A stretch of DNA of 64,000 nt, from NCBI GenBank assembly GCA_019973935.1, contig BMAU01016994.1, positions 1,008,762 to 1,072,761 of the forward strand, written 5' to 3'. Positions within the stretch are counted from its first letter, which is position 1; each line of letters starts with the position of its first letter. The translations under genes and the position numbers were made by a program. Positions 1 to 49,211 of the stretch are shown piece after piece. Under the pieces are notes generated by a model that saw nothing but the letters and a program-made list of their open reading frames with translations, did no database searches and was not told where the DNA came from. This DNA is from Trichonephila clavipes (taxonomy: Eukaryota).

Positions 1-1300
1 AGAAGACCAGTTTAAAGGCTTTGAGTCCTTCTTACCTTTAGAACCTTTTAAAAATTCACTTAAAAGATACTGTTGTTCAGCTGCTTTGGGCAAGAAACGT
101 CTATAAAAATTTAACAGTCCTAAAAATTTTCTCAGAGAGCCAACAGTCTCTGGTTGTTTGTAATCAAGAACTGCTTGAACTTTGTCAGGCAATGGCTTAA
201 TGCCATCAGGAGTGATAAAGTGGCCAAGGAAAATGAGTTCAGTCACACCAAATACACATTTAGAGATATTTAGTTTTAAACCATATGAGCTCAGTCTTTG
301 GAATATAGTTCTTAAGTGAGAACGATGCTCCTCAGCATTTTCTGAGTAACACAAAATATCATCCAAGTAGACAAAACAAAAAGGAAGTCCTCTTAGTACT
401 TCATGCATGAATCGCATAAAGGTTTGTGGTGCATTCACAAGGCCAAAACACAAATGGGTATATTCGTAAAGACCCCATGGAGTTGTTACAGCTGTCTTAG
501 GAATATCACACTCAGCTATAGGGATTTGGTGGAATGCCTTAAAAACGTCTATTTTGGAAAATATCTTCTTGCCATGTAGTGCATGAGCAAAGTCATTCAA
601 ATAAGGCATGGGGTAGCTGTCGAACTCAGTAACAGAATTCAGCTGCCTGTAATCCCCAACAGGTCTAACTGTAGAGTCAGATTTGGGCACAACATGAAGA
701 GGAGAACAGGGACTTTTGGAAGGTCTAATAATGCCTTGAGCAAGAAGAAATTCAAATTCTACCTTCACTGCATCATACAGTTTAGGGTGTAGCCTTCTAG
801 GCCTGGCAGTGACTGGTGGGCCAGTAGTAATAATATGGTGGACTGTGCCATGTGATGCTGATTTGGAAATTAAAGAAGGGTTGCTGAGGTCTGGATATTC
901 CGATAAGATGTTTTTAAAACTGATGTTTGCATCTACAGTGAGGATTGAGGGCTGTACAATATTTGAAAAACACAAGAAGTGAAAAGAGAAGTTTCCACAT
1001 CCACCAACCTTTTTTTTCTTAAGGTCGATTAAAAGGTTGAAGTGCTTTAGAAAATCAGCACCAATTATAGGAGATGATACATCAGCAATTATGAAAGTCC
1101 AGATAAAAGGTCGCCTCAGACCCAGGTTCAGTTCTTTACGGACCATACCATAGGCTGGAATTTTGGTATTATTAGCAGCAAATAAGGAGAAGTTAGACTG
1201 AGGTGATTTATTCATAGTTGGAGAATGTGGGATGACACAGATTTCACTTCCAGAGTCTATGAGGAATTTCTGGCCAGACTTGCGGTCTAATAAAAATAAC
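1..1300 (-). pseudogene. pol (protease plus reverse transcriptase) with frameshifts
   Basis: RT similarity is spread over several minus frames and there is no long ORF. Confidence 0.7.
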
Positions 1301-1346
1301 CGGCTGGTATGTTTCGAGGGCTCTGCCATTCCAGCTATGACAGAGC

Positions 1347-2144
1347 TTACTCGTTTTTTTGCACAAATGCACAAGTTGAAACACACTTGTGGGCCTGCTC
1401 TTTATAACGGCGATGATAGTAGCAGATGCCACTTCCTCTATTGACACCCCTAGAGCGTGAATGTGATCTCCGGCGGTCAGAACTATATCGTTGGTGGCGA
1501 GAGGAATTGCGCTCTCTTGTCAGTTCAGCAACTTGTAGAGACAGCTCTTGGATCTGCCTGGCGAGAGAGTCCATGGTTGGCTGAGCATTGCATGAAGATG
1601 ACTGGGATGGTGGAGGAACAGTTTTGGCCGCACAGATAGTCGAGGATGCACCAACAACCTCAGAAACCTTATCAGCGATGATAGCCAGTTTATCCAAAGA
1701 CTCTGAGGATGCAGACAAAACAGTCTGGATATGTGGTGGCATTCTTTGAAGCCACAAACTTTGCAGAAAGTCATCCTGGAGTTGGCCATTAGACAGCTCT
1801 TTCATTTTTCACAACAGGTGGCTGGGCTTCTCATATCCTACCTGAAGGTCAGTAAGCAGTTTCTTAATTTTTTGAGTCTCCGAGTCGCTAAATTGGGTGA
1901 TGAGCCGCTGCGAGAAAGTGTGATATTTGTCACTGTTCGGAGGGCTTAACACAATGTCCGACACGTAGGAGAGAGTTTCAGCATCCAGGTTCGCAACCAA
2001 AGCAGAATACTTAGTATCATCACTGGAGATACCACTGAATGTGAATGCATGGTCGCATTGCGCAATCCATAGACGAACGTTGGATTTCCAAAACGGCGGC
2101 AGCCGCAACGCAATACGAGCGACTTCAACGGTTTCACTAGTCAT
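1347..2144 (-). CDS. gag-like capsid/nucleocapsid; two ORFs (1809-2144 and 1347-1805) split by a frameshift
   Basis: ORFs MTSETVEVARIALRLPPFWKS... and ...CYYHRRYKEQAHKC (CCHC knuckle) lie upstream of pol on the same strand. Confidence 0.65.
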
Positions 2145-2514
2145 ATTGTTGAATAAGCAGGAAGCGAAACGAATCTCCGAGCAGATGCTTCAAGTGGCCT
2201 TGAGGAGAAGGAGAAAAAAATCTTTCGCTACGTACTGATCATCCGTAGTAGAAGAATTTGTATTGCATTCGCCAGTAGAACAGAATAGCTTACGTGTTTT
2301 TAAGTCCAAAAAGGGGTCACCACTGCCGCGTTGCGTGGTTAGACATTCTTCACTACAACACGGTTGAATTAAATAACAATAAACATTTATTAACTTTAAA
2401 GATTAAACGAGCAATTAAGAGGTAAACTTTTAAAAACTACAACACATGGAATCAGGCACGCTACAATAATAACAGATCAATTCAGTTCAATTTTGGAGTC
2501 GTTATGTTGAGCTG

Positions 2515-3790
2515 TAAGGTCGCTGCACATACATATTATCATAATGAATATACTTTTTACCCGGAAGTGGTCGCAGGGGACACACAGATTACGAAATCGT
2601 TAATTCTGGCAAAACTGTTTATTAATTACCAAAGAAAAATTGAAAAGTCCTTGAAAGTAGGTAAGTAAACTTTCTCTGAGCTAAATTATTCACTGGAATC
2701 ATGATTTGCATCGTGTACAATAAAATAATTATAAAAAAGAGGATTGGGGTGACTCAATAACCCCGACCGTACCGAGTGCGCGCCTGCTCCCGGGTTAAAA
2801 CATGTTGGTCTTTTCACTTTAAATATTAAAAATAATACAATTATTCTTCATCGATATTTTATATTATTGATCATTATTTAACATCAGTGGCGCACACAAG
2901 GGGTGGGGCAAATTTACGCAAAATTTAGTTAAGTATTAGTTATTAATGATTAATTTTATTAGTTAATGCTAATTATTTATTCAAGAATTAGTTTTTTACT
3001 GTGTTTTGTTCCCGAAAATCGACAAAATCAAAAGGAACTTGATACAAGATTGGTGAACTTTCGACCCCGGACCCTCCCCCTTGAAAAATTCCTGTGTGCG
3101 CTACTGTTTAACATCAATTATAAATGCTAATTCTGTGAGGCTTAAAATTACAATTCGCTTAAAACTAATTATAATTTGAGCAACAATTTTAAAAAAATCA
3201 TTTTACGTTTTTGTAAACATTGTCGAGCACTTGGCTTTGCTTCCCTTACAATTCAGCTATTATATCAATAATGTTTTATTTTCTTATAAATGAACTCGAG
3301 CAAAGAGCTGGCACTTAAGCCGGTATACTTTTAATTTATCAGTGCTGCACAGAATATTTTATAACTAATTAATTAATACTAAATTAAGAACAAGTTTAAT
3401 AAGTATTAATGGCGTCCATGAGCTTGTCTTGGAAAGCAAAGTTTTTATAAGGAATGCTTATTATTAGAAATTGACCCTCTGAGTTCTTTTTCTATATTTA
3501 GCAGATATCTATATTTTGTCTTCTAAGCAGCTATCGCATTTTGTAATATGTTCAATTTAAAAATTAGAGAAAGGAAAAATAACATAATAATTATCCTATT
3601 ATTTTATTTATTTATTTTGCTTAAAAGTAGTATACAAAATTTTTAATACTTATGTTACTAATTTGTATGGTTTATAATTAAGATCGCCTATTGTAACTTT
3701 ATATCGTCAAAGTGCATTATTATTTCATTCAGTACATTATTAATGTATAAGGGGTGCGCGAAAAAAATTGTGATCGAAAAGGGGGGCGCC
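2515..3790 (-). mobile_element. hAT-like non-autonomous DNA transposon copy; inverted orientation; outer end truncated
   Basis: Reverse complement of 2515-3790 matches 4718-6050 at about 97% identity. Terminus CAGTGCTTCTCAAACTTTCAATACTGG lies at 3790 (read on minus). Confidence 0.6.
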
Positions 3791-4163
3791 AGTATTGAAA
3801 GTTTGAGAAGCACTGATATAGACCAATGTGCCCTAAGCGTCTGTACACGGTCTGCCTTGAAACTGTCGTACCGGTAGCCGAAGAGAGCTGACGAGACAGG
3901 TCTGATACTGTGTTCCGTCTGTTTCTTTTGGCAGTAACTGCCAAATATATATACCGGTCCTCATTCGGCGTTGTAACTCAGGGGCGACCTGTGCTGTAAC
4001 ATCTACTCACATTACCATCATCTTGGAATCGTTGCCAAAGCCTGGAGATGACACTCTGGGCGATTCCAATAATTCTACCACGTAAAAAATAATCCAAATG
4101 CTTTCTTTGTGCCATAACTATGCGGTTATTGCACTGAAAGGCTTTTAAAGCGCTTGTGAACAA
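3729..4163 (-). pseudogene. Tc1/mariner-type transposase N-terminal (HTH) remnant
   Basis: ORFs ...RGRIIGIAQSVISRLWQRFQDDGNVSR... and ...TVSRQTVYRRLGHIGLY... resemble the Tc1 transposase N-terminal DNA-binding region. The rest is missing (abuts hAT-like copy and SINE). Confidence 0.55.
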
Positions 4164-4496
4164 TTTTACTTGAATAGGCGTTTTCCTTTGGGCGTCCGGA
4201 CTGTAAAAACAGTCGTCAATCCCATATCGTGAGAGTCCATGATGCTGGGCATGGCAAAAGTGGTGTTTTGCATTCTGCTGAGTGGCATGATGGCAATTGG
4301 TCGAACGATGGAATCCGGGAGGAGTGGCTATGGTGCTTCATCTGGGGGGAAAGTTTTTTGAGTTCTTTGGCTTAGCTGAGAGCTTAGAGGTTGCTCTCTA
4401 ATTGGATGCTGGGTACAGTGAACATTGACTCCAATTGGCTGCCCTGGGGACTGGGTTTATCCTCCCGTTGGTGTGGTGTGGTAGTTAGGAGAGGGG

Positions 4497-4616
4497 GGTG
4501 CCAGCTCAGGTGTCGTCCACGTCACTTGACCATGGTTCAAAATTACGTGGTCCGTCGCCAAAAGCCCTCGTGTAGCTGAACAGTGCGACGTTAATATTCA
4601 TTCATTCATTCATTCG
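4497..4616 (+). mobile_element. SINE1, 5'-truncated copy (3' ~120 bp with (TTCA)n tail)
   Basis: Matches the 3' part of the full SINE1 copies. Flanked by direct repeat GGGGACTGGGTTT (4447-4459 and 4617-4629). Confidence 0.8.
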
Positions 4617-4717
4617 GGGACTGGGTTTTAGAAAATGCGGAAGCGCAAGTCCAATGCGGAGAACAAGTGAAAAATATTTACAAAAATAAAAGAAAGTAAA
4701 ATTTTAGCTATTAAGGC

Positions 4718-6712
4718 AGTGCTTCTCAAACTTTCAATACTGGTGCCCCCCTTTTCGATCACAATTTTTTTCGCGCCCCCCTTATACATTAATAATGTAC
4801 TGAATGCAATAATAATGCACTTTGACGCTAAAGCTACAATAGGCGATCTTAATTATAAACCATACAAATTAGTAACATAAGTATTAAATTTTATATACTA
4901 CTCTTTTAAGCAAAATAAATAAATAAATAAAATAATAAGATAATTATTATGTTATTTTTCCTTTCTCTAATTTTTAAATTGAACATATTGCAAAATGCGG
5001 TAGCTGCTTAGAAGACAAAATATAGATATCTGCTAAATATAGAAAAAGAACTCAGAGGGTCAATTTCTAATCATAAGCATTCCTTATAAAAACTTTGCTT
5101 TCCAAGACAAGCTCATGGACATCATTAATACTTATTAAACTTGTTCTTAATTTAGTATTAATTAATTAGTTATAAAATATTCTGTGCAGCACTGATAAAT
5201 TAAAAGTATACCGGCTTAAGTGCCAGCTCTTTGCACGAGTTCATTTATAAGAAAATAAAACATTGATATAATAGCTGAATTGTAAGGGAAGCAAAGCCAA
5301 GTGCTCAACAATGTTTACAAAAACGTAAAATGATTTTTTTTAAATGGTTGCACAAATTATAATTAGTTTTAAGCGAATTGTAATTTTAAGCCTCACAGAA
5401 TTAGCTTTTATAATTGATGTTAAACAGTAGCGTACACAGGAATTTTTCAAGGGGGGTCCGGGGTCGAAAGTTCACCATTCTTGTATCAGGTTCCTTTTGA
5501 TTTTGTCGATTTTTGGGAACAAAACACAGTAAAAAACTAATTCTTGAATAAATAATTAGCATAAATTAATAAAATTAATCATTAATAACAAATACTTAAT
5601 TAAATTTTGCGTACTATAAACTTAGAATTATAATCAATCGGAAAAAAGTCAAGGGCTTTGGCCCCCCGTGTGTGCGCCACTGATGTAAAATAATGATCAA
5701 TAATATACAATATCGATGAAGAATAATTGTATTATTTTTAATATTTAAAGCGAAAAGACTTCAACATGTTTTAACCCGGGAGCAGGCGCGCACTCGATAC
5801 GGTCGGGGTTATTAAGTCACCCCAATCCTTTTTTTATAATTATTTTATTGTACACGATACAAATCATGATCCCAGTGAATAATTTAATTAAGAGAAAGTT
5901 TACTTACCTACTTTCAAGGACTTTTCAATTTTTCTTTGGTAATTAATAAACAGTTTTGCCAGAATTAACGATTTCGTAATCTGTGTGTCCCGCGTGACCA
6001 CTTACGGGTAAAAAGTATATTCATTATGATAATGTGTATGTTACTGCGAAAAAGATTGTGTGAAACGTTTTTCGTTATGCTTTATATGTTGAGAATATTT
6101 ATAAAAATATGTCTTGGCCAAGTAATCCTTCATGTGCTTTTGTGTGTGTGTGTGCTCTCCGTGGTTTCCCAAATATCATAAAACTCTTTTGCATGGAAAA
6201 AAGCGCAACAGAGAACACATAAGAGAGGGGTCATAACTAACTGTACCAATAACTCAGAAGGTCAAACAGATTACAGCTATAATGTGCAGTATTTCAAAAA
6301 TAATGACAGTGATTAATTTTTTATGTTCCTAAATTTTTTTCGATTCTGTGTCTGGGATCTGTTTTTTCTCTGAAAGAGTAGTATGTTAGGTTAAAAAAAA
6401 GCGTAATAAAAAAATCTCTCATCATGGGATTACAGCAAATCAAATAAAAGTTTTTTTTTATTTGGTTATAGGATCAAAGATAGCTAATTAGGTATTGAAG
6501 AAGTTTTTATTTTTGCTGACTTAATATCGCGCGCTCGCGCCTATAAATTATATCAGAGTAAAAGTGTATTTTTTATTATGTCTGAAAGTATTTTGTTTTA
6601 ATTCTTTCCAGTAAACTAATTACTTTTTAAATCTTTTATTTTCGATATGCTCACGCCCCCCTCGTAAGGTCATCGCCCCCCAGGGGCGCGCCCCACAGTT
6701 TGAGAAGGTATG
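4718..6712 (+). mobile_element. hAT-like non-autonomous DNA transposon, ~2.0 kb, no ORF
   Basis: Termini CAGTGCTTCTCAAAC... and ...GTTTGAGAAGGTATG (imperfect TIR). Flanked by 8-bp direct repeat TATTAAGG (4710-4717 and 6713-6720). Terminal ~100 bp of each end matches the 10398-11165 copy; the copies diverge internally. Confidence 0.55.
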
Positions 6713-9000
6713 TATTAAGGTGTGCAATAAAAATTATTGCACGAATAAAAAGAATTACGGGGGGTGTAGAAATCAAGAAGAATTCTTCTTGGTCTTTTTG
6801 TATTGTCATTAGGGGTGTATTGAGATAAATTTTGCATATTGAAATTATTGGTTGTTTGTAAATCGTTAAAAAAGTTAATTGCTATTTTTTGAATATGAGA
6901 TTTGAAACTATTCATTTTAAGAGCATTACGTATGTCGTCATTACGCATGTATCTTGTGGCTTTGACGATCATACGTATAAGAGAATTCTACAGGGTATCT
7001 AGGATATTGATATTAGTTTTAGCGGCATAAAAAACCCCATACTGGACTTGCGTAAGCTAAAATGGGACGCATAACGGCTGTATAGAGAAGCACTTTGTTT
7101 TCTATACTTAAATGTGAGTTCCGGCCTATAAGGGGGTAAAGTTTAAACATAATTTTCCGGAACTTATCGCGAACGTATAAAATATGTTGCTTCCAAGTTA
7201 GGGGCGCATCGAAAATTATTCCAAGGTGTTTGGCTTCCTGAGACCAGGGGATCTGTTTATTGTACATGATGATTGGTGGTGGGAGTGAAAGCTTTTTCGT
7301 GAAAATTATGGCTGTGGAGTTTTCTACGTTAATACTTATTTTCCATTTGTCATAGAAGTTTTGCAGGTGAAGTAGGTGTTTGTTTATTGCATAGGAAATT
7401 GTTAATAGTTTTTTATACGTAGCATGAATGACAGTATCATCGGCGTAAAGGTTAATTTTTGTTAGTGAGTAGTCGGGGATATCATTAATATAAAGATTAA
7501 AGAGCAAGGGACCGAGCAAGGAACCTTGAAGACACCCTGCAGATACAGAGTGTTAGTTGGAAAGGGTCTCGTTAATTCTAATTCTGAAGGAACGATTAGT
7601 GAGATAGGAGTGAATGAGGTGAATTAGTGGGGGTGGAATTTTATAGGATATTAGTTTGAAAGTGAGTCCATTCATCCAAACACGGTCGAAGGATTTCTGG
7701 ATATCCAGAAAAACTATTCCCGTGCTTTTCTTTTTCTGGAAACCTTCCGAGATATGTTCAGTTAATCTTAAAAGTGGGTGTAAGGTTGAGAGCTTGTTAG
7801 TGAAACCATATTGATTGGGATTGAGAAGGTTATTTTCATTGATGAAATTTTTTTAGTCTATGAAGGATAATAGATTCGGTTAGTTTACCTATAGTGGAAA
7901 GGAGAGATATGGGCCTGTACCTGGATGCTAGGTGGGGATCCTTGCCAGGTTTGTTAATGGGAAAAATAATGGCTTCTTTCCAGTTGTCTGGAAAGTGATT
8001 GAATTTGAGGATTTTGTTAATTAGAATTGTTAAAATAAGGATTAATTTAATGGGAAAATTTTTTAACATGCGGTTAGTAATTGAGTCTACCAGGGGCTTT
8101 TTTAGCATTAACATGTTTAATATAGTGGATTATTTCGTCCGGAAGAGCAGGTTCAATGAAGGAGGTAGGGGGGGGGGTAGAAAGGAAGTTATTTACGGTA
8201 GTGTTAATTAATTCATCATTTTGATTGTAATTATCATTTTCGCGTTCATTTTCGACAAAATTATTTTTAATGTTAGTAACGAGGAGGTTAGCTTTTTGCT
8301 GATCAGTGACTGCCGTACCTGTTGCACAATTTAGTGATGGGATTTTTAGTCTTTTATTTTTAAAAAATCTTTGCGTGCGCCAAAGGCTATTGTCTGCGGT
8401 ATTTAGAACTTCAAGTCTTTTTTGCCAAATGTTATCATTATATTTTTTAAGTTCTTTTTTAAGATCCGATTGTGCTCTATTGTAATGCGATTTAAAAATG
8501 GGATTGAGGGTTTGATGGTAACGTTTTTGGAAGTAATTTTTGATTTTTAGCAGCTGGTTAATATGATGTGAAGTGAAGTTCCTACGGTCTGTTTCTATTA
8601 GTCGGGAGGCGTTGCTATGAGTATCGATGACTTCTTCGGTGAATTCTGTGATTTTTTGCTCTAAGTCGTAAGTGCTATTAATACTATTAGGATGGAAATC
8701 AAAGAGAGAAAGATTCTCATTTAGATTAGTTTTGAAAACATTCCTGTCGGTGGAAACCGCTCTGGGATTTGAGGGTTCCACCGCTAGTTTGAAGTTGAAA
8801 TTTAAGAATACTGGATTGTGGTCAGTAGAAAGATCGTCGATGGAGTTAATAGTAAAGGGGTAATAGAAGTTTTTAATAAGGGCGATGTCTATTGTGTTAG
8901 CGGAATTGTGACCAAATCTAGTAGGAATAGAGGGAAAGGCGATATTTAAGTTGAGCATATTAGCGAAGTTAAACAATTTTACTTTTTTTCCACCATTCCT
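6713..9000 (-). mobile_element. non-LTR (LINE) retrotransposon, Jockey/CR1-like, 5'-truncated, frameshifted ORF2
   Basis: Minus ORFs contain an APE endonuclease C-terminus (..STDHNPV..), RT motifs (YRPISLL, FADDT-like YADDTVI) and a C-terminal domain. Four ORF pieces 6715-8976. Confidence 0.8.
6715..8976 (-). pseudogene. LINE ORF2 (endonuclease-RT) broken into 4 ORFs
   Basis: ORFs 8074-8976, 7836-8114, 7019-7519 and 6715-6972 are collinear RT pieces in different frames. Confidence 0.75.
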
Positions 9001-9285
9001 TATGTACTCCTCTCTTACACTCTCGTCATTGTGACGCGTACTATCCGCGCCATCTGGTGGTTTCCTGTAATTTGCATATTCTTCTTCAAGATGTGTGTGA
9101 TAATTCTACAGGTGAAATTTTTATTTTAGAGTTCAATTTCTGTGTGATTCTGAATTATCCATAATTTATGGACATGAGTGTAGATAAGCACAAGGAAAAT
9201 TGAGAGGTCTTCATAGATTAAAAATTTTCCAAATCAAAATTCTCTTTTCTAGCTTGTGATTGATCACCAAGGCGTATTCTTGAAT

Positions 9286-9550
9286 GGATTAATGGAATAT
9301 TAATGTCGCACTGTTCAGCTGCACGAGGGCTTTTGGCGACGGACCACGTAATTTTGAACCATGGTCAAGTGACGTGAACGACACCTGAGCTGGCACCCCC
9401 CTCTCCTAACTACCACACCACACCAACGGGAGGACGTTTCAGCTCTCGACAGATTTAACGTGCATCGCTGCCCTACACGGCGGGTCTTTAATGGTACTGG
9501 GCTCGAACTCGTGACAAGGCAAGCCACGATCCGATACCTATACCACTCGG
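9286..9550 (-). mobile_element. SINE1 copy (tRNA-derived SINE)
   Basis: Reverse complement matches SINE1 (GCCGCGGTAGCCGAGTGGTATAGG...GTGCGAC). Flanking direct repeat CTTGAATGGA (about 9276-9285 and 9556-9565). Confidence 0.75.
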
Positions 9551-10397
9551 CTACCGCGGCCATATCCTTGAATGGAACGAACTGGTTTGTAGTAACTATG
9601 CACGAGATCATCCACTTGGAAAACTCTCCGCTTGGTAATATATTGTTACGTAGATCCGGGGTTCGATGATTTTATGCAAATCAGTCATAAAGAACAAGAC
9701 AGTTCCTTAAGAGCGATGAGAATTTACAGTCGAAACTCCAATCCTTGAAATATAGGATTCAGCAGCAATATTCACAGAATAAATCTTAGAAGGTCTTTAC
9801 ACCTTCAACAGTATTAAGACACAATTATTGGTGTCTAAAATACACGTATATAAAATATTATTCATAAGCAATCGCTCTTTCAACAACCGAAGTAATCACT
9901 ATTCACTTCAACAATCAGAGCAATAATACCTGATTGCTAGTCAAGACCAGATCAGACTGACTTTCGGCTAGCATCTCTCTTTCTTTATACCCCTCGCGGA
10001 TGATTCGAGAAATACCTGCTTGTGTCATAGGTCTTAAAATTAGTGTATTTCTCTACTAATTTCTAAAAGAATCCAGAGGGTTCCGAACGCACTAAAAATG
10101 GTCGCCAATATGATCACTAAGTCGCAAACTTGGTCGCCAAAAATGACGCCAACTTGGCTCTATCACCATGATTTCGCCAAGTTCCTATTGAATCACCATT
10201 ATAACGTATTATATATTATTATAACGTAACGTTATTTTTAACGTAAATTAAATCTAATTTAGAGTAAGATAAAGGCATTACACATCCAAATACAAATTAT
10301 TGACACTATTTAACACAAAATTCGTATCAATATTGTTGTCTTGACATTTGGAGTTTCTGGAAGACTGATGTTTCCAGAAAATATTATTGGTATAGCT

Positions 10398-11165
10398 CAG
10401 TGCTTCTCAAACTTTCAATACTCGCGACCCAATATTCAATCATCATTTTCATCGCGCCCCCCTCCATACAATAGAATTATATTGAATTCAATAATACTAT
10501 ACTTTGACACTAAAGCTACGACTTTAACCTCCTATGTGCCACTGACATATATAAACGTCTCGCTCAGCCAAAGCATTAATCTTCTGGACGTATATATACT
10601 TCTTTCCGAAGTACGATCTTTTCTGTGCACTGCTATCCATAAAATTATTCCTAAGGTTTTGTATTACAATAAAAGAACCTTGACAGTCTTTGCAAAGGAT
10701 TTACTTATTTCAGAGGATTTTGCTTATTTATTCCTTTTCTTCTCCCCCCTCCCAATAAAACATCACAATACGCGAGTCTACGTGGAAAACCGTGGCATTG
10801 GGAACCAAACCGCATAAATTTTAATCGACAGTTAAAGAATTAATTATAAACCGTACAAATCCTCAATATAAGTGTTAATACAAGCCCATGGGATCACTAG
10901 TAATTATCAAACTTGTTCTTAACTTGTTATTTTTAAATTAATAATAAAATACATTGTACAGTGTACATGTACTTTATAAGTGTATTATATCAGTGTAAAT
11001 GTGTATTTTATATTTTATTATGTCAGAAAGTATTTTCTCTGCTTACTTTCAGTAAATTCATAATGTTTTGAATAATCTTTAGTTTTCAACTTTTCAATAT
11101 GCTCGCCCCCCCTTGTAGAGTTATCACGCCCCTAAAGGGGGGCGAGCCCCACAGTTTGAGAAACG
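10398..11165 (+). mobile_element. hAT-like MITE, 770 bp
   Basis: Termini CAGTGCTTCTCAAACTTTC and CCACAGTTTGAGAAACGCTG (TIR about CAGYGYTTCTCAAACT). Perfect flanking direct repeat TGGTATAGCT, giving an 8-bp target-site duplication GTATAGCT. Confidence 0.65.
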
Positions 11166-12270
11166 CTGGTATAGCTTGAGCTTTTAAGTTTGAACTCTCT
11201 CAAATTGAATTTTTTAAATTTATTAATTTCAAAATGAGACAACTCATACTTCGTTAAATCAACAATAAAAAACTTCATGTTTTTTTATCATACAAAGCAA
11301 TGCATTATAAATATTTAAATACGAAGGCAAGTCATTTTTTTCCTTTACAAATATAAGACATAATTATTAAACTGTGTATAATTTTACTTTTTTGCCTGTT
11401 CTAGTCAAAATAATTATTTACAATTATGAAAAAATTTACATTCGAAGGCATTGTATTTATATGTACTGGCATTTTAGCACAATCAATACAGAAAGTCTAT
11501 CCAAACATATTTGCTACTTCCTTCAGTTTAATGTTTACAGGAAAAGTTCCTTTTAATATTTCATGCGAGACACTATTAAAACGAACCGTTTAAAAAGTAT
11601 CTAAAAGGGGAGAGGTAAATCGAGGTTTCTAATATGTAAAAAAAAATTGCATTTCAACTTAATTAGTTTTTCCTTTCGTAGAAAAAGGCATATAAAATTT
11701 ATACAGAAAGAAAAAAAATTATAAAATCCACCTAAAAGTTCAAGACTAATAATCACTTAAGAAATTTCCTATCTTTTTTTCCCCTAAATTAATATTTTTT
11801 AAAATTTCTATTATCCCCTTGATAAAGAAACTAATTTTTTTTCTTGACTCTCATTTTAAGTACTGAAGATTATCGCTTCCAAATTTTCCGAAATGGTTAA
11901 ATATTTTACTGAAACACATTCGGTTATATTTATTCAAAGCTCATTTGTTGCATAACACACACATCGATTGTTTTTCATACTGAGTTTTTTAAGATTAGAA
12001 TTAATTATTAAAAAATATGTACTTTCTGTGTGTGAAACAAAAACATATAATTACAGTACTGTATTTTTAGACTATATCATTTTCCCCTTTTCATTACTTT
12101 ATCCTTTTTTATAGCTAATAGTCCCCCAACCCCCATATCTATATAAATAAAAATGAATGTTTGTGTGTTTATATCCTAAAATGCTCATCCAATTGCGATG
12201 AAACTTTAGGGAATGGTTGGACGCGTGCCCACAAAGGTTTCTGAGTTACTAAAATTGACCCCAAAGGCAG

Positions 12271-12619: not shown

Positions 12620-13401
12620 GTTATAGATAAGCGGTGTTATATAGATAAAAACTCCCGTTTTTGAACTATTGGTTCTACAAACTTGAAATTTGGTAGGCAT
12701 GCTCCATTTATAAAGTTGTGAATCGCTACATAAGGGGTTTTACAAAAAAAATGAACCATAAGGGACTTAAGGGGCGTTATATGTAAATATTCCTGTTTCT
12801 TAATTATTAGACCTACATGCTAGAAGTTTGGTTGGCCCGTTCCTTTCATGAAGTAGAAAACCACTAAATAAGAGGTTTCGCGAAAATCTACTACAAAGGA
12901 GCATTGCAGGGGCGTTATAGATAATTGTTCTCGTTTTTATAATCTATTAGACCTACAAACTTGAAATTTGGAGGGCATGTTCCTTTCAAGGATTAAAGGT
13001 ACGCCACAAAAGGGGTTTGGGCGAAAAATGAATCCTAAGGGGTGGTGTTATAAATAAATATTCCAGTTTCTGAACTATTGGACCTACAAACTTGTAATTT
13101 GGTAGGCCTGTTCCGTTTATAAAGTTGAGATTCGCAACACAAGGGATTTTTCAAAATTTGAACCCCAAGGAGTGTCGCTAGGGCTTAAGGGGCGTTATAT
13201 ATAAATATTCTCGTTTTTGAACTATTAGACTTACATGCTGGAAATTCGGTAAGTTCGTTCCTTTCATGGAGTCAAAATCCACTACAAGAAGTGTTTTAAA
13301 AATCGACCCGATAGGTCATTGCGAGGGCCTAAAGAGCGTTAGAGGAAAAATATTACCGTATTTGAACTTTTAGACGTACAGACTTGAGATTTTGTTGGTA
13401 T

Positions 13402-13444
<43 letters not shown>

Positions 13445-13700
13445 TTGAATATAGATCCGCTAAGAACGGATTTTACGGAAATCGAGGAGAGGAGGGGAGA
13501 GGAATTCTTTTGCAGCGTATTGATAAAAAATTCCCCATTTTTGAACTATTAGACCTTCAATAAGGAAATTTATCTCTGTTGTTGAACTGAACGGGTTTGT
13601 TGAATGGGTCTTACAAAAATCGACTCTCAATGGTGGTTACTGGAGCTTATTGAAAAAAAAAGATTGTTTTTGATCTAGTAGATTTAAACTTGAAATTTGG
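12620..13700 (+). repeat. satellite-like tandem array, ~135-150 bp unit, about 7 units (left arm)
   Basis: Recurring unit containing GGGGCGTTATA..AATATTC..GTTT..AACTATTAGACCTACAAACTTGAAATTTGGTAGG at ~140-bp spacing. Confidence 0.8.
13403..13443 (+). repeat. poly(T) tract of ~41 nt inside the array
   Basis: Uninterrupted T run. Confidence 0.95.
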
Positions 13701-13806
13701 CAAGCATGTTTATTTAATTGAGTAGATACTCACTAAAAATGGGTTTTGGGAAATCCACTTTGGAGGGGGTTACGAGAGAATAAAATATAATTCTATTACA
13801 ATTTAT

Positions 13807-16003: not shown

Positions 16004-16281
16004 GGGCCGCGGTAGCCGAGTGGTATAGGTATCGGACTGTGGCTTGCTTTGTCACAGGATCGAGCCCAGTACCACTAAAGACCTGCCGTGTAGGGCAGCG
16101 ATGCACGTTAAATCTGTCGAGAGCTGAAACGTCCTCCCGTTGGTGTGGTGTGGTAGTTAGGAGAGGGGGGTGCCAGCTCAGGTGTCGTCCACGTCACTTG
16201 ACCATGGTTCAAAATTACGTGGTCCGTCGCCAAAAGCCCTCGTGTAGCTGAACAGTGCGACGTTAATATTCAATCAATCAA
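16004..16281 (+). mobile_element. SINE1 full-length copy inserted between the gypsy PR and RT
   Basis: tRNA-like head GCCGCGGTAGCCGAGTGGTATAGG...GTTCGAGCCC, then conserved body and (TCAA)n tail. 13-bp target-site duplication TTCATTAAGCAGG (15991-16003 and 16282-16294). Confidence 0.85.
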
Positions 16282-16731
16282 TTCATTAAGCAGGACCATC
16301 AAATCATTTCTTTCTTCTACATTTAGAGCCTGTCCTTCTTCTTCTCGCGAATGGAGATCATTTGTCTCAGTTTCATCAACAGTGTTGCTATGCAATGGAA
16401 TTTCACTGGGAATCGAATTTGTGGGACAAGAACTACTATTTATTTCGACAGGACTGTCGTCTACAGGCAAAGGAACATCTTTTGAAAAAGGTACCCTGAA
16501 GCTTGGTTTGTCACCAAAATACCAAAAATTGTTACGCATGTCCATTACGATTCCTGATGTCCTTAAAAAGTCAACACCTAGAAGAGTGCGGTTACCTTTT
16601 GCATGTGGCAAAAAAATTAAATCGATTTGGAAAGTTCGTTCACCTACAGTGATTGGTACTGTAGCTTTTTGAACAAGGGATGTGGATTTCAGCACAAACT
16701 GTGCCTGTAGCCTCATAGACTTCGATGTCAA
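16270..16731 (-). CDS. aspartic protease
   Basis: ORF with ...IDLIFLPHAKGNRTLLGVDFL... (retropepsin-like). Confidence 0.6.
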   Translation of the reverse strand: MTSKSMRLQAQFVLKSTSLVQKATVPITVGERTFQIDLIFLPHAKGNRTLLGVDFLRTSGIVMDMRNNFWYFGDKPSFRVPFSKDVPLPVDDSPVEINSSSCPTNSIPSEIPLHSNTVDETETNDLHSREEEGQALNVEERNDLMVLLNELID

Positions 16732-30275: not shown

Positions 30276-30422
30276 TGTTTGATCACTACACCCGGGATAG
30301 CTCAATAACACACACCTCACACATGGACTGTAAAACACTCTCTATTTTTATTCACCTAAACACATAGTAACTAGAGATACACAAACAGCGCCGTCTGGCG
30401 CACGGTTTTTGCGACAAGCATG

Positions 30423-30426
<4 letters not shown>
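30276..30426 (-). repeat. BEL 5' LTR
   Basis: Direct repeat of 24354-24504. On the minus strand it is followed by TTTTGGTCCGTCGAGCCGGAG (TGG-initiated PBS-like). Confidence 0.8.

Positions 30427-30501
<75 letters not shown>
30427..30501. repeat. (TA)n microsatellite, BEL insertion site (right part)
   Basis: Dinucleotide run adjacent to the LTR. Confidence 0.95.
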
Positions 30502-30502
<1 letters not shown>

Positions 30503-30691
30503 CCAATATAATTTTTTTTTCAATATATAACTATGTACATATACATACACATATAAATTTATACATATATATACATATACACAGATATATAAACAAAAAT
30601 ATAAAAATAAACATATAGTTATATACCTAAGATAACTAAAATTAGGAAGGAGGCACATAGTATAAAGACAAACTCCTGGCCCTAGGAACCA

Positions 30692-30727
<36 letters not shown>

Positions 30728-31513
30728 CGTCATGAAATACCCAGCGAAGTGGACGGGTAACGGCTAGTAAGTAAATAAAATAGCAATTTAAAATCCCAAG
30801 AAAATTTCCTTTATTGACTTTGCATATGTCAGTGAACAGATAGGGAAAATATAGTTTCTTATCCAAATAGTAAAATGCTTCATGTGAATCCGGAATTCCT
30901 AACAGCTGAAAAAGAATCATAATGACTGCCCGTAAGTAAGATTTTTTGAAAGAGGCAACTGTAAATTGAAACGTTATCTAAAACTTATGAGAGAACAAAA
31001 AAAAAAAACATTACTCGAGAGTTTATTAGGAAAAAAAACATTGGTCTTTTAAAAGAAAAAAAAATTACTTAACATGTCGAAATTTGAGAGTTGAATTTTT
31101 AACAAATTAATATACTGTGGTGGTCAAAGCTGTAGACACTTTTGAAAATTGTTGTGTTTTTCAAGTTATGCATATAGTTTTTCAAGTATGCTTATAGAAA
31201 ATGTTACGTTGTACAAAATGCAAAGTCTGATATCATTTTAAAGAGAATTCAATACCGAATTCAATACAAAAAACAAAATTCGTTGCCACGCAAAAAGAGT
31301 TATGCTGCAAAAATTATCGATATACATTAGATACTGATGATAGCAGTGGGTTATTAGTGCTTTGTAGGGTAGTCTTGATTTTTATTACAGATTCACATCA
31401 TTGTTTCATTGAGCTGAAAGTAGTTTTAAACTTTTCCTTCGTTATTAAATGATGCCAGAAAATAATTATTGCCAACTTAAAAAGTTGGAGAATAAATAGG
31501 AAAGAACGTTTCT

Positions 31514-38609: not shown

Positions 38610-38745
38610 TCTTGGTGTGGAAGTTAGGAGAGGGAGGTACCAGCTCAAGTGTAGTCCTCCTCACTTGACCATGGTTTAAAATAATGAGGTTCATCTCCAA
38701 AAGCCCTCGTGTAGCTGAATAGCCCAACACTAATATTTATTTACT
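38610..38745 (+). mobile_element. old, diverged SINE1 3' fragment
   Basis: About 80% match to the SINE1 3' region (GGTACCAGCTCAAGTGTAGTCC...CCCTCGTGTAGCTGAATAGC). Confidence 0.55.
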
Positions 38746-41498
38746 CACTCCATATGTGTATCTGTTAATATTGATTAAAGCCGTTTTTTTTGCATTTTTG
38801 TGCTTATTTCCATAATTTTGTAATTAAATGCTGTTTTAGCCTTAAAATACATTTTGATAGCTCTATTTTGCAGTCTGATACAACATATTTAATGGCATTC
38901 ACAACAAGTTTGTGTGCATGATGTTACTACATAAATATGAATAATTCTGTATCTCAGGAAGATGAATTTGAGGAGTACTTAAAACTAGCTTTGAAATTTG
39001 GTTCAGAAATTAATTGAAGGATTCACATCATCCACAGAAAGCTATTTGAAAATAATTGAGCTTGTAATGTCTAGATATGAGAAAGAGGAATTTTTAATAT
39101 AATTATATGTTAGAGAATTGTTACTCTTGTTCTTCAAAAAGGATGGGAAATTCCAGTTGTCTAGTTATATAATAAATTAGAATCTCAATTGCATACCCTA
39201 GATTCCTTGGGAACTTAGAACTTACTGAAAAAGAACTCTCCTTAGAACAGAGTCTAATAACTATTATCATTTAACTTTTGTTCTTTTTTAGTATTAAGGT
39301 GCATATATATAACTGTAATTGATGACAGTGTAATTAACTTTTTAGCTTAATTTTAAGAGAAATTACCATTCTTCAGACTGAGAAATATTTTTTAGACAAT
39401 CATTAAAAATAAACTTTTGTTGAATTGTTTAATCAGTTATATTGATTTTTGTCATATTGACTCTTTGCAATTAGATTGTCTAAAATGTAATTCATAGGAT
39501 GTCTAAATATTTTCTGTGTGTGTGTAAATATCAGTTATTCTGAAAAATTACTTAATATTGACAAAAATAGGGTTATTGAAAAATTAAAGGGAATGTTTTC
39601 AAAAATATTAATAATTTTTTACCTCAAAATGCAGTTATGTCAACAGTATTACTTTTTTTTTCATTTTGGAAGTAAATTCATAATAAATTCGTGATATTTA
39701 TGAATTATTTTCATGCTTGTGATTTATTACCAATGATTAAAACTGCATGCCAGAGAATTTTCCAAAGACATTACATGTTATGACAACCAATTTGATATCC
39801 TAAAAATATTTTCTAAAATTTATTGAAATCCCCTGAAGATCACAGATGACATGGGGTTAGTATTTAAGTACTAAGAAGTTGATTATAGATTTCAGTTGTG
39901 TAATTGTTTTAAGGTGCATGTTGTGTCAGTTTTTGCAATTTTAGATTTTAAAACTATTTAAAAAGAACAAAAAAATTTAATTTTTCAAACTGTGATTTAT
40001 GAAATAATGCTAAAAATGATAATTTTTAAAAATTACTATTTGTTACATTTAAAGGTCAAAAACTCAGAATAATTGTTGGCTTGACAGTGATTAAAAAAGG
40101 AATGCAATTGTGACTCAAATACTTCAACTGATTCTTACTGTCTAAAAAAGTTTTTTGTCTCTGTTTTACTAAGATAGATTGTGTATTTTAGGAACATGTT
40201 GTTGGTCTAAAATTGAAGTTACTCATGTGTAAAATGATTAATAAATACAAAAGTTACATATATTCAGAGAATAGCTGTTATGTGGCTTAAAACTTAATAC
40301 ACAAATATCGTACCTTGTTGATATTTAAGTATCAAATTAACTCTTTTTTTAATTTTTGATATGTGTCTAAATTGTGATTTAGAAATGTCAATGAGAAATG
40401 TTTTCATAAGTGTACTACAGATATGAAATTTGTATATGTAACGTTTTTAACTCTAAAGAAACCTTTGACTTGTCTTTTCACTTTTATGCATTTAGCAGTT
40501 TAATGGAAGCCAGTATAGTATATATAAAGGCAATAGATTTTAATTAGTGGGTTATGGATTAACCAGAAAGCAAATTATTGTCGGGATACTGGAAAAATAG
40601 AAAGAAAAAAAATTCTCCATTTTCAAATAATTTTACCAAACTGAAATAAATCTACAAGTTAAAATCTGACCCAAACTGTAATTTTTTAGAGATAAGACAT
40701 GTGCTCTACCTATAGGAAGAGTTCATGTGTGAGGATTTTATAATATTGGATATGATATACAACATTACTACTGCTTGTAAAATAATTAATGGTTAACTTT
40801 AAAAAACATTAGGGCAGAAAATATTACTTGAAATTTTCATGAGTAATTACTTAGTTTTCAAAAGAGTGCTGTGTGAAGCAGTGTAAAAATATTAAATACT
40901 TTACAAAGCACAGATAGATGTAAAAATATTGATTAGGAGGCAGTGCCTGATTAATTAAATAAGAATAATAAATCATCCAGACATGAAATATGGAAAAATG
41001 ATGAAATTGGGCAGTAAGTATATTAAGATTTTACATAATGAACCAATCCCCATTAAAGAAGGGGAGTTATACCAAAGGAAGTGTAAGTCACACACACACA
41101 ATTCTATGTAAATGTTCTTAATTATTTAGAACTCTCAAGAAGATGGTAACTGCTCAAAAAAATCCAATCCTGGATTTAAAAGGAAATTAATCCTGGGCAA
41201 TCTAAGCACATTATTTGGCAAAAACTTTTTGAAAACACAGAATACAAATACAAAATTGTCATTTCAAGCGGTGATAAATCAAGTACTATGCTCTTCATCA
41301 ATTTCACATATATTATGATTTAATCTAAATTTTTTATCCAGGATTTTACCTTTCATTCCGAACAATCTGTTGCAAATGTTTCAGCAATAGTTTTATTTAT
41401 TGTATATATAATTTTTCTGTCATGAAATAATGTACTTTATTAACTCTAATGATCTACAATATGAATTAAATTTTACATGCATTATATTTACATAATAG

Positions 41499-44422: not shown

Positions 44423-44540
44423 TCGGTGCCAGCTCAGGTGTCGTCCACGTCACTTGACCATGGTTCAAAATTACGTGGTCCGTCGCCAAAAGCCCTCGTG
44501 TAGCTGAACAGTGCGACGTTAATATTCAATCAATCAATCA
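44423..44540 (+). mobile_element. SINE1 5'-truncated copy (SINE-a), left boundary of the tandem duplication
   Basis: SINE1 3' ~120 bp with (TCAA)n tail. Flanked on both sides by TTGGGAAAACTTC (44410-44422 and 44541-44553). Confidence 0.8.
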
Positions 44541-45454
44541 ATTGGGAAAACTTCATTTGAAACTTATGCTAACAAAATTATAGTAATTCTACAATGTTGA
44601 TTTCATGGGTGTATACATGATATCAGCATTTTAAAATCTGATGATCCAGTGCAGGTAAGTTCTCTGACAGACCTGCAGTTTTACTAATTGAGCTAAAAAT
44701 TTATTTCTGGAGGCAGAACAGTGGTCAAATGCCATTATCTTGACAGCTTAGAACAATTCAGGAAGTGCATTCATCATAAATTATCTCGGATGTTGCAAAA
44801 TGGACAATTGTGTATCATCTGAGACCAATATACAGGCGCACATTGGTCTCAAAGTGTCATACAGTTTTTTGCCGAATTTGAAAGTGAATGCTTTCACATT
44901 TTGCCTATTTACAGGATTTAGCCCTGTGTTAGTTTTACTTATTTTAAGAATGAAACTTAAATATCTGCTAGGGTATCATTTTTTGTTTTTATATCATATA
45001 ACAACAGCTTTGCGAGAGGTTTTATGGATAGTTGCAAAAGATGGCTTTTGTATTGCTTCCATAAGTTGTACCACTTCTGTCAAAGGTGTATTGTTGCCCT
45101 AAAGGAATATTTTGAAGGTTGTTGTGTATTAATATTTTTAGATATTAGAGTTTTGAAAATTTTATGCCTTCAACTTTAGGATCCTGCTTCATAGGATAAT
45201 TTTAGAAACAGAGTTTTTATACCTTTGGCAGTTGTTAAGCTTAGAAAAATTGAATACTTTTGCATTTTACCTATATGGTAATATTAATAATATTATTTAA
45301 TCATAACTTTATTAACATTAGTTTAATATCTTAGGAATTGCAACTTGATTTTAAGTATATTGAGCCAGTCTTTTTTCAATTCCCACTATTAGCTCACACT
45401 CTCTATATATTTATTTATCTTGTTCAAATTTTCAATCATTAATAAAATACATTT

Positions 45455-45900: not shown

Positions 45901-46601
45901 TTAACATTGTGATTCTGTCATATGTATATACATATTTATATTAATTGTAACTATTTAATAATAAGTAGCTAAAAAATAAATTTTTTGTTTTTTGATCTAA
46001 GCAGGAATTGACTTTTTATATTACTTGTTTTTAAATTTTGTTTACCTTATTTTCTCTGAATCATAAATAAAATGAGGATAAGAAAAAATTTTTCAAGCTA
46101 GTGTAGGATCTTGATTTGGAAGTGTTTGTAATTATTGATAAAACTGTTATGTATGCTTAAATATGCAATTTCTTAAAAACATTTGCATTACTTTTTGGCT
46201 TTGTAAATGGTTTTGTGATCTTAATTTAAATTATATTGGAAAAAATACCAAATGTATGAAAGATTTTACATCATTTAGTGTTTAACTTTTCAATCATAAT
46301 AGGCACTATAATTTTGAAAAATGTCCATTATTTTAAATTATTGTTATTGTAAGATAAAATTAAAATAATAAATCTACCTTATTTGTTACTCTTGTATATG
46401 ACATAATTTTCTGAAATCAAGATTTGTACCAAGTTTTCATAAAAACTTTTTCAATATTTAAGATTACATGGAGGTTATACCATAGACCGGTGGTCTTCAA
46501 AGTTTTTCAACTCATGAAACCCCTAGAACAAGAATGTGTTTTCATGGAAACCCTATAACTAGAGAGTATTTTCATGGGACCCTACTCCCCACACACACAG
46601 T

Positions 46602-46876
46602 GGCTGCGGTAGCCGAGTGGTATAGGTATCAGACCGTGGCTTGCCTTGTCACGAGTTCGAGCCCAGTACCACTAAAGACCCGCCGTGTAGGGCAGCGATG
46701 CACGTTAAATCTGTCGAGAGCTGAAATGTCCTCCCGTTGGTGTGGTAGTTAGGAGAGGGGGTGCCAGCTCAGGTGTCGTCCACGTCACTTGACCATGGTT
46801 CAAAATTACGTGGTCCGTCGCCAAAAGCCCTCGTGTAGCTGAACAGTGCGACGTTAATATTCAATCAATCAATCAA
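46602..46876 (+). mobile_element. SINE1 full-length copy (recombinant junction copy)
   Basis: 5' flank CCCCACACACACAGT. 3' flank TTGGGAAAACTTC. So the 5' flank comes from the downstream SINE and the 3' flank from the upstream SINE. Confidence 0.8.
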
Positions 46877-48936: not shown

Positions 48937-49211
48937 GGCTGCGGTAGCCGAGTGGTATAGGTATCAGACCGTGGCTTGCCTTGTCACGAGTTCGAGCCCA
49001 GTACCACTAAAGACCCGCCGTGTAGGGCAGCGATGCACGTTAAATCTGTCGAGAGCTGAAATGTCCTCCCGTTGGTGTGGTAGTTAGGAGAGGGGGTGCC
49101 AGCTCAGGTGTCGTCCACGTCACTTGACCATGGTTCAAAATTACGTGGTCCGTCGCCAAAAGCCCTCGTGTAGCTGAACAGTGCGACGTTAATATTCAAT
49201 CAATCAATCAA
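48937..49211 (+). mobile_element. SINE1 full-length copy (SINE-b)
   Basis: Flanked by CCCCACACACACA on both sides (target-site duplication). Confidence 0.8.

Follow-up and report, generated by a model that had tools for sequence, protein, structure and literature searches.

An inverted pair of non-autonomous hAT-type elements in a transposon-rich stretch of Trichonephila clavipes

The window, a 64,000-nt stretch of contig BMAU01016994.1 from the spider Trichonephila clavipes, contains two copies of one element, A and B, which lie close together in opposite orientation, and a shorter relative, element C. The features of the region are, in coordinates of the window:

1 to 2520, minus strand: retroelement adjoining the broken end of copy A
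below about 700: RT-like region of the retroelement
1347 to 2144: gag-like ORFs of the retroelement (DUF7041, E 1e-20)
about 2524 to 2323: putative 5' LTR of the retroelement, TG...CA, read directly from the sequence, as was a PBS-like sequence, TGGTGACCCC
2521 to 3815, minus strand: copy A (1,295 bp), the 5' part of a non-autonomous hAT element of the B type, collinear with 4717-6046
3801 to 3815, minus strand: 5' terminal inverted repeat of copy A, CAGTGCTTCTCAAAC, an exact match
3816 to 3823: minus-strand flank of copy A, GTCTATAT, with a central TA
3816 to 4163, minus strand: N-terminal remnant (HTH) of a Tc1-like transposase
4459 to 4615, plus strand: 5'-truncated copy of a 281-bp tRNA-derived SINE
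4709 to 4716: left target-site duplication of copy B, TATTAAGG
4717 to 6712, plus strand: copy B, a complete non-autonomous hAT element of 1,996 bp with terminal repeats and target-site duplications
6713 to 6720: right target-site duplication of copy B, TATTAAGG
10390 to 10397: left target-site duplication of element C, GTATAGCT
10398 to 11168, plus strand: element C (771 bp), MITE-like in size and structure, from a related family; its terminal repeats are CAGTGCTTCTCAAACT and CAGCGTTTCTCAAACT
11169 to 11176: right target-site duplication of element C, GTATAGCT

A repeat search found nine collinear inverted blocks of 74 to 348 nt, with 90-98% identity, between 2527-3815 and 4717-6041. Using blastn, nucleotides 1-1325 of B and positions 3815-2527 were joined in a single alignment of 1,338 columns with 92.2% identity and 62 gap positions. 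In a global MAFFT alignment of the reverse complement of 2521-3815 with 4717-6046, the 1,285 aligned bases were 95.25% identical, with 31 transitions, 30 transversions (K2P 0.049) and 8 indel events, one of them of 39 bp. The inverted repeat reported in the earlier note is real, but its identity, given there as about 97% over about 1.3 kb, is about 95% over aligned bases and about 91% with gaps counted; the arm of copy A ends at 3815 instead of 3790, and the spacer, put at about 930 bp, measures 901 bp (3816-4716). On both sides the homology ends inwards exactly at the CAGTG terminus, and the flanks beyond are unlike each other. The pair can also fold back, as had been predicted: the minimum free energy of 2521-6046 as single-stranded DNA was -1452 kcal/mol against about -320 kcal/mol for shuffled sequences, with 1,242 pairs between A and B. 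Such folding is trivially true. Long inverted repeats are potentially fragile or a source of hairpin RNA. The A-B pair has no demonstrated function, and nothing in the analysis points to fragility or hairpin RNA.

Copy B begins with CAGTGCTTCTCAAACT and ends with AGTTTGAGAAGGTATG, a degenerate repeat matching at 13 of 16 positions, and the same 8 bp stand on either side of it, exactly as claimed for the 2-kb copy. It contains no ORF above 70 aa, and a six-frame Pfam scan for a decayed transposase returned no domain at E up to 1; hence, B is non-autonomous. Each end has GCCCCCC motifs no further than about 70 bp away. The 3' terminus has changed from CAG to CAT, and because of this decay B is probably immobile now. 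With 1,996 bp it exceeds the size of a MITE (below about 800 bp) and is better termed a non-autonomous hAT-N element.

Copy A has an intact 5' terminus and stops at the equivalent of nucleotide ~1330 of B, its homology to B ceasing at about 2521-2527. It is probably immobile now, since its 3' end is missing. A second copy of its flank, ATATAGAC, would be expected on the missing side had A once been complete. The insertion point of A lies within the N-terminal HTH coding region of the Tc1-like transposase, which is cut after '...RRLGHIGLY'. In the minus-strand ORF 3729-3944, which matches Pfam PF01498 (HTH_Tnp_Tc3_2, E 4e-8), the Tc1 codons run directly into the terminal repeat of A (QCFSNF), and residues 9-108 of the T. 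clavipes Tc1 transposase P0034 gave a tblastn match to 4109-3783. The DDE part of a Tc1 transposase is absent throughout the 64-kb window. The earlier note had placed A next to a Tc1 remnant; the remnant is there, but the relation is closer than adjacency, as A is inserted into its reading frame.

The second component of the spacer is the SINE copy, bracketed by a 13-bp duplication, GGGGACTGGGTTT, at 4446-4458 and 4616-4628. The 281-bp repeat to which it belongs occurs seven times in the window, and the spacer copy is 93-98% identical to five of the others and about 83% identical to the sixth. A full-length copy (9562 to 9281) carries a Pol III A box, TAGCCGAGTGG, and B box, GAGTTCGAGCC. These boxes, the dispersed copies, the duplication and the 5' truncation are those of a tRNA-derived SINE. 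Rfam (E up to 1, 2000-11500) and ARAGORN (whole window) recognised nothing, so the A and B boxes read from the sequence carry this assignment. Both spacer contents named in the earlier note, a Tc1-type N-terminus and a truncated SINE, are therefore present. On its other side, A is adjoined by the retroelement, and near-identical paralogues of the gag ORF of this retroelement occur on 4 further T. clavipes contigs. The retroelement probably interrupts A, rather than A having been shortened by deletion.

Element C was introduced in the earlier note as a third copy of 770 bp at 10398-11165. Its termini and 8-bp duplication stood as described, but the element ends at 11168 and belongs to a different, related family. 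In blastn comparisons, the similarity of C to B was limited to two short internal patches and to the ends, with about 120 bp (80%) on the 5' side and about 180 bp (72%) on the 3' side. Judged by its sequence, C is a shorter sister family and not a third copy of the B-type element. In size, terminal repeats and duplications it resembles a MITE, a non-coding, multi-copy element below about 800 bp.

Terminal inverted repeats of hAT elements are short (about 10-25 bp) and start with (C/T)A(G/A). The 16-bp repeats of B and C, beginning with CAGTGCTTCTCAAACT, are of this kind, and the two ends of each element match at 13 of 16 positions in B and 14 of 16 in C. In both complete spider copies (n=2), the 8-bp duplications are perfect (8/8), and among flank lengths from 2 to 12 only length 8 gave a duplication match. 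The CAG-initiated short terminal repeats and 8-bp duplications are exactly as the earlier note had stated. Charlie/SPIN-type hAT elements prefer the target NYYTARRN or NTCTAGAN, with a central TA. The insertion sites of A, B and C share a TA at positions 4-5. Of the specified positions of NYYTARRN, which has been reported for SPIN/hAT-N elements (PMC3014272), two sites, among them that of A, fit 5/6 and one fits 4/6; with three sites in all, this preference is weak support when taken by itself. Comparison of the terminal repeat only with published SPIN/hAT-N repeats gave 14 of 16 matches. GCCCCCC heptamers occur ten times in the 64 kb; nine are within these elements, eight of them no more than about 70 bp from a terminus, while about one would be expected by chance. 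The domains of a hAT transposase are a BED finger, an RNase-H-like DDE core and, at the C terminus, a hAT dimerisation domain. No ORF for such a protein was seen in the window. As no transposase gene with matching termini was found, the superfamily is assigned by termini, duplications and target-site preference, and on these and the likeness to SPIN/hAT-N repeats the earlier hAT reading holds. Together with Tc1/mariner, hAT elements are the dominant DNA transposon classes in spider assemblies (PMC8693713).

Our preferred reading, to which we give a probability of about 85%, is that the region is a nest of ordinary transposable elements in which A, B and C are deletion derivatives of hAT elements, non-autonomous and encoding nothing. 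The B-type family, of which at least 15 copies were sampled, is dispersed in the genome: 13 T. clavipes gene models, on 13 other contigs, carry fragments of it joined to different host TE ORFs. A recurrent composite unit was rejected, since the Tc1+MITE gene models P0034 and P0037 represent different Tc1 families and do not have the element at the same position. In the first 36 codons, B is separated by 2-4 residues from those other copies and by 3 from A; the resemblance between A and B thus does not exceed that to copies at other loci. As copies on other contigs resemble B no less than A does, we favour reading the pair as two independent insertions of a young family that is dispersed in the genome. 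Its 1.3-kb inverted repeat is a by-product of these two transposition events and not a functional unit.

Alternatively, A and B could be parent and daughter, one copy having been excised or copied and reinserted, inverted, a few hundred bases away. The elements Ac/Ds, hobo, Hermes and Tol2 tend to make such local hops, A and B are 901 bp apart, and three related elements lie within 9 kb. Moreover, A and B have in common a derived T, which gives F instead of I at codon 18 (IFF vs IFI); C lacks this base, and so do 9 of the 10 other copies sampled at the site. However, the remaining copy, P0033, carries the same derived base on another contig, and at a variable L/M site A goes with P0036 and B with P0030. 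The K2P distance of 0.049 between A and B equals the divergence of B from copies on other contigs, and in a nest of transposable elements co-occurrence is unsurprising. We regard a local hop as unlikely, although it is the strongest of the alternatives.

The long inverted repeat with its short spacer could also suggest that 1.3 kb was copied without any transposase, as a segmental inverted duplication arising from a fold-back replication error or palindrome formation. Such copying is very improbable, as each of the two inner breakpoints falls, to the base, at the element terminus and the sequence beyond is unrelated. In addition, B has its own perfect 8-bp duplication, A is flanked by a good hAT target site that lies in a Tc1 ORF, and a divergence of about 5% is normal for the family. 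Equally slim is the chance that a different superfamily which makes 8-bp duplications, such as P or Merlin, gave rise to the elements. A duplication of this length is not unique to hAT, and no transposase was seen; the 14/16 match to published hAT repeats and the fit of the target sites to NYYTARRN argue against it.

Membership in Tc1/mariner, which the earlier note had offered as an alternative, is hardly credible. Some Tc1/mariner MITEs do start with CAGTG, for example TcMar-N9/N16_AC (PMC3014272), and a Tc1 remnant lies between the copies. Yet that remnant is the target of the insertion of A and not its parent, and the duplications are of 8 bp. No pair of TA dinucleotides brackets any of the elements: the flanking dinucleotides are GG/TA for B, CT/GT for C and AT for A, and the bases adjoining the termini are G|CAG...ATG|T, T|CAG...CTG|G and T|CAG, respectively. 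The alternative is refuted because no flank has a TA duplication. Finally, inverted duplicates are known artefacts of long-read and amplified libraries, but a chimeric or palindromic read is a negligible explanation for arms that differ by 61 substitutions and 8 indels, have a different and sensible flank each, and enclose 901 bp of unique, interpretable spacer.

Under the reading as two separate hAT insertions, a hAT transposase acting in trans would recognise the 16-bp repeat and probably also the subterminal GCCCCCC motifs. It would excise the element and reinsert it at an nYYTARRn-like site with a staggered 8-bp cut, the repair of which would give the 8-bp duplication. The order of events that we infer begins with a Tc1-like element on the minus strand, into whose HTH coding region copy A would have inserted. 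A SINE would then have been retroposed some 650 bp from there, losing its 5' part and gaining a 13-bp duplication. Copy B may have inserted after this, independently, at TATTAAGG in the opposite orientation and 901 bp from A, and last an LTR retroelement would have entered A, or a deletion removed the 3' third of A.

The A-B pair is thus ordinary genomic debris in a transposon-rich stretch of T. clavipes, with little meaning beyond annotation. For annotation, the termini, duplication and target site are now defined for a B-type hAT-N family of about 2 kb and a related, MITE-like element of 771 bp in this species, and several of the deposited T. clavipes gene models are chimeric, joining TE ORFs to the B-type element. 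The region also provides an example of nested insertions for ordering transposon activity, with a hAT element in a Tc1 element, a retroelement in the hAT element and a SINE nearby.

We compared the pair and its family with known systems. Like the paired or 'double' Ac/Ds elements of maize, A and B are neighbouring copies of a single hAT family, inverted and with termini facing each other. Unlike maize Ac/Ds doubles and reversed-ends configurations, the A-B pair has 5' ends at both of these termini and lacks the outer end of A. It gives no evidence of alternative transposition or of a rearrangement associated with it.

Searches with the exact 25-nt terminus gave no match in bacterial or archaeal genomes, viral contigs or metagenome contigs, and the 20-nt terminus had none among genome contigs. 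Unrelated JGI metagenome contigs of eukaryotic origin (L003-L039) contained elements with an identical 20-nt 5' terminus, namely one of 728 bp and MITEs of about 170-205 bp. A LINE endonuclease ORF from these contigs matched nothing but unnamed JGI/ENA proteins. The loci were chosen by this 5' terminus, with the 3' terminus playing no part in the selection. At 14 flank pairs, which come from other organisms and are in several cases non-independent (one locus in several samples; an element within a larger repeat), the match fraction was 0.72 at 8 bp, with each of the remaining lengths between 2 and 12 giving about 0.25. The earlier note had proposed looking for TA duplications on other copies, and here, too, the signal is at 8 bp. 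The metagenome MITEs have in common with the spider elements the asymmetry of 5' and 3' repeats, subterminal GGGGCC/GGCCCC runs and 8-bp duplications of nYYTAGRn type; their 3' end, GTTTGAGAAACCCTG, differs at 1 of 15 positions from that of C, GTTTGAGAAACGCTG. They are unlike the spider elements in being much shorter, in their host and in having no likeness past about 30-45 nt of the termini. Reading the ORFs of at least 130 aa in 39 metagenome loci revealed no recognisable hAT transposase or autonomous copy.

Among the SPIN ('Space Invaders') and related hAT-N/Charlie-type non-autonomous elements of vertebrates, terminal repeats and 8-bp NYYTARRN duplications have been published for SPIN_AC, SPIN_NA1_AC and hAT-N1_AC of Anolis (PMC3014272, Table 1). 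A literature search with the SPIN subterminal sequence had an unrelated mouse promoter paper as its sole match. Since they were compared by the published repeat alone, we call the spider elements SPIN-like at their termini and not members of SPIN. It is a long shot that the spider family belongs to a widely travelling SPIN-like hAT lineage, which would have entered Trichonephila by horizontal transfer rather than being united by ancient terminal conservation; the basis cited is the exact 20-nt terminus and near-identical asymmetric 3' terminus in a probably invertebrate metagenome host and a mammal-like MITE. No less speculative is a separate idea, that the 1.3-kb hairpin, if transcribed, could be a source of small RNA directed against the family. 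The spider family differs from SPIN in its host, in having no known transposase and in the length of B, which at 2 kb is long for a non-autonomous derivative. The likeness lies in the terminal repeat, where CAGTGCTTCTCAAACT of the spider and the SPIN-type CAGYGGTTCTCAACCT differ at two of 16 positions, in 8-bp duplications with a central TA and 4-5 of the 6 NYYTARRN positions, and in short or internally deleted non-coding derivatives with G/C-rich subterminal motifs.

In a repeat search, 2527-3815 and 4717-6041 were linked by nine inverted blocks in collinear order, each 74-348 nt long and 90-98% identical, and gapped blastn joined the two arms, copies A and B of one element, in a single alignment of 1,338 columns (92.2%). 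Global alignment of the reverse complement of 2521-3815 with 4717-6046 gave 95.25% identity over 1,285 aligned bases; the arms differ by 31 transitions and 30 transversions (K2P 0.049) and by eight indels, of which one spans 39 bp. The inverted repeat described in an earlier note, made from sequence alone, was thus present; its identity of 97% was slightly high, its arm ended at 3790 where the repeat extends to 3815, and its spacer of ~930 bp measured 901 bp. The same note predicted a fold-back stem, and, folded as single-stranded DNA, the two arms form 1,242 pairs with each other in a hairpin, at an MFE of -1452 kcal/mol vs about -320 for shuffles. This predicted hairpin is a consequence of the repeat and no independent evidence of function. 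The features of the region are as follows.

1-2524, minus strand: retroelement with putative 200-bp LTR, DUF7041 gag and RT, adjoining the broken end of A and continuing past the window edge
3801-3815, minus strand: intact 5' terminus of A
4459-4615: spacer SINE fragment, comprising 157 bp from the 3' end of a 281-bp repeat
4717-6712: B, 1,996 bp, start CAGTGCTTCTCAAACT, end AGTTTGAGAAGGTATG, terminal repeat 13/16
4709-4716 and 6713-6720: duplications of B, TATTAAGG on each side
10398-11168: element C, 771 bp, terminal repeat CAGTGCTTCTCAAACT / CAGCGTTTCTCAAACT, 14/16
10390-10397 and 11169-11176: duplications of C, GTATAGCT on each side
9281-9562 (minus strand), 16005-16287, 38613-38750, 44425-44546, 46601-46881 and 48936-49210: other copies of the 281-bp SINE

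When lengths 2 to 12 were compared, the flanks of B and of C agreed at length 8 only, in keeping with the 8-bp duplications proposed earlier. C had been taken for a third copy of the same element. Its similarity to B is limited to 120 bp at the 5' end (80%), 180 bp at the 3' end (72%) and two small stretches in between, so we regard it as a sister family that shares its ends with B. B is non-autonomous: its longest stop-free stretch is at most 70 codons, and no frame gave a Pfam match at E up to 1. Over the 64 kb, the heptamer GCCCCCC is present ten times vs about 1 expected; nine of the ten lie within A, B or C, eight of them no more than about 70 bp from a terminus. These heptamers resemble the repeats that serve hAT elements as subterminal binding sites, and may have such a role.

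We consider that transposase inserted A and B, two members of a young family, in separate events, with a probability of roughly 85%. Searching with stop-free translations of B identified 13 T. clavipes gene models (P0027-P0039) that contain the element; they lie on 13 other contigs, and the B-type family is therefore dispersed. In these models the element is entered, at differing positions, by a TE ORF (Tc1, gypsy, BEL or other); of about 14 known insertions of the family, 3 hit Tc1 elements, each time at another site. Within the first 36 codons, A has 3 residues that differ from B and other copies have 2-4; A and B are no closer to each other than random members of the family are. A derived base is common to A, B and the model P0033 and absent from C and from the nine other sampled copies covering the site; at a second variable site A groups with P0036 and B with P0030. 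A local hop from parent to daughter would be a less probable sub-case of two insertions. An inverted duplication without transposase is unlikely, because on each inner side the A-B similarity stops, with single-base precision, at the CAGTG terminus, with unrelated sequence beyond, and B carries its own duplication; the flank of A, inside an ORF, is a good hAT target. It is also unlikely that the pair is an assembly artefact or that A, spacer and B form a recurrent composite unit. We know of no published description of this T. clavipes hAT family.

The 13 models, which include GenBank entries named DUF1758, KRAB-A domain and Tcb2 transposase, are chimeras in which TE ORFs continue into non-coding hAT-N and the terminal repeat is translated (AVLLKLSIL..., ...IESLRST). 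As deposited, they are annotation artefacts.

Within the spacer, the minus-strand ORF 3729-3944 matched HTH_Tnp_Tc3_2 (E 4e-8) and a T. clavipes Tc1 transposase aligned to 4109-3783, confirming a Tc1 transposase N-terminus. The Tc1 frame '...TVYRRLGHIGLY' continues directly into the terminal repeat of A ('QCFSNF...'), so A is inserted in a Tc1 transposase gene; the DDE part of the interrupted Tc1 was not found anywhere in the window. The truncated SINE was likewise recovered, with a perfect 13-bp duplication, GGGGACTGGGTTT, on both sides. The 281-bp repeat has seven copies in the 64-kb window, mostly at 93-98% identity, and an ATTC-rich tail; an A box (TAGCCGAGTGG) and a B box (GAGTTCGAGCC), both tRNA-like, stand at the start of the full copy 9562->9281, and neither Rfam nor ARAGORN recognised the element. 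The fragment at 4459-4615 is a 5'-truncated retroposition of a tRNA-derived SINE. Overall, the earlier picture of a hAT pair with Tc1 remnant and SINE held, with identity, arm end, spacer length and the status of C revised.

A tracks B up to B position ~1330, where similarity ends abruptly. The retroelement left of 2521 (minus strand) begins with TG at this junction; ~200 bp inward, ...GCGGCA is followed by a single G and by TGGTGACCCC, similar to a primer-binding site, and after these come DUF7041 gag-like ORFs, an RT-like region and the window edge. Near-identical paralogues of the gag ORF occur on four other contigs. The most economical inference is that A was once complete and was then interrupted by an LTR retroelement, so that the remainder of A would lie outside the window.

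Three window ORFs are identical to deposited T. clavipes proteins (GFV75494.1, GFV75497.1 and GFV75501.1), all on the same 1.21-Mb contig, which identifies the window as nuclear DNA of the golden orb-weaver. Transposon ORFs crowd the left 30 kb (DUF7041 gag, reverse transcriptases, integrase, BEL/Pao- and gypsy-type pol). G+C content contrasts sharply, at 30-43% with abundant retroelement ORFs in 1-32000 vs 22-30% with few long ORFs in 32000-64000. A long (TA/TATA)-type microsatellite (translation YIYIYI...) occupies 30371-30733, and 12638-13750 resembles a tandem or satellite-like repeat that has degenerated, with 5-7 diverged ~140-bp units at 60-84% identity, spaced 131-147 bp and then more loosely. 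The inverted pair, Tc1 nesting and adjoining SINE are expected contents of a TE-rich spider genome; hAT and Tc1/mariner are the dominant DNA-transposon classes of spider assemblies in published repeat surveys (PMC8693713).

As a check named in advance, further copies were sought to distinguish 8 bp from TA by scanning metagenome contigs with the 20-nt terminus, resulting in 39 loci. Most are 170-205-bp MITEs or a 728-bp element on eukaryote-derived contigs (L003-L039; JGI contigs Ga0210059_*, JGI24158J21664_*, JGI24159J19872_*, JGI24021/24022* and Ga0081606_*), and their 3' end GTTTGAGAAACCCTG, not selected by the search, is one base different from that of C. Several are embedded in a larger repeat, and their flanks there (ACTTAGAA...ACAAGAGCTGCAAACG) are identical. 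Two loci (L002, L019) hold a different MITE with the 20-nt terminus in common; its interior appears similar to that of mammalian MER-type Charlie MITEs, and we presume mammalian contamination. Across 14 distinct flank pairs, which come from other organisms, are in several cases not independent and support the terminus class and not the spider family itself, the match fraction was 0.72 at 8 bp vs 0.20-0.32 at each other length (8/8 in two pairs, 7/8 in five; site pattern nYYTAGRn). The alternative raised earlier, a Tc1-like element with CAGTG termini, fails because TA brackets none of the termini of A, B and C, and Tc1/mariner identity is ruled out.

The spider target sites TATTAAGG (B), GTATAGCT (C) and GTCTATAT (A, single flank) have a central TA in 3/3 and agree with NYYTARRN at 4-5 of its six specified positions. 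SPIN_AC (CAGYGGTTCTCAACCT), SPIN_NA1_AC and hAT-N1_AC of the Anolis catalogue all have 8-bp NYYTARRN duplications, and the spider terminal repeat matches their repeats at 14/16 (PMC3014272). The 8-bp duplications, terminal repeat match and central-TA sites argue for the hAT superfamily, as first proposed. Judged by termini and duplications, A, B and C would be placed among the non-autonomous hAT elements whose ends are of SPIN/Charlie type, being SPIN-like in terminal repeat, duplications and target sites.
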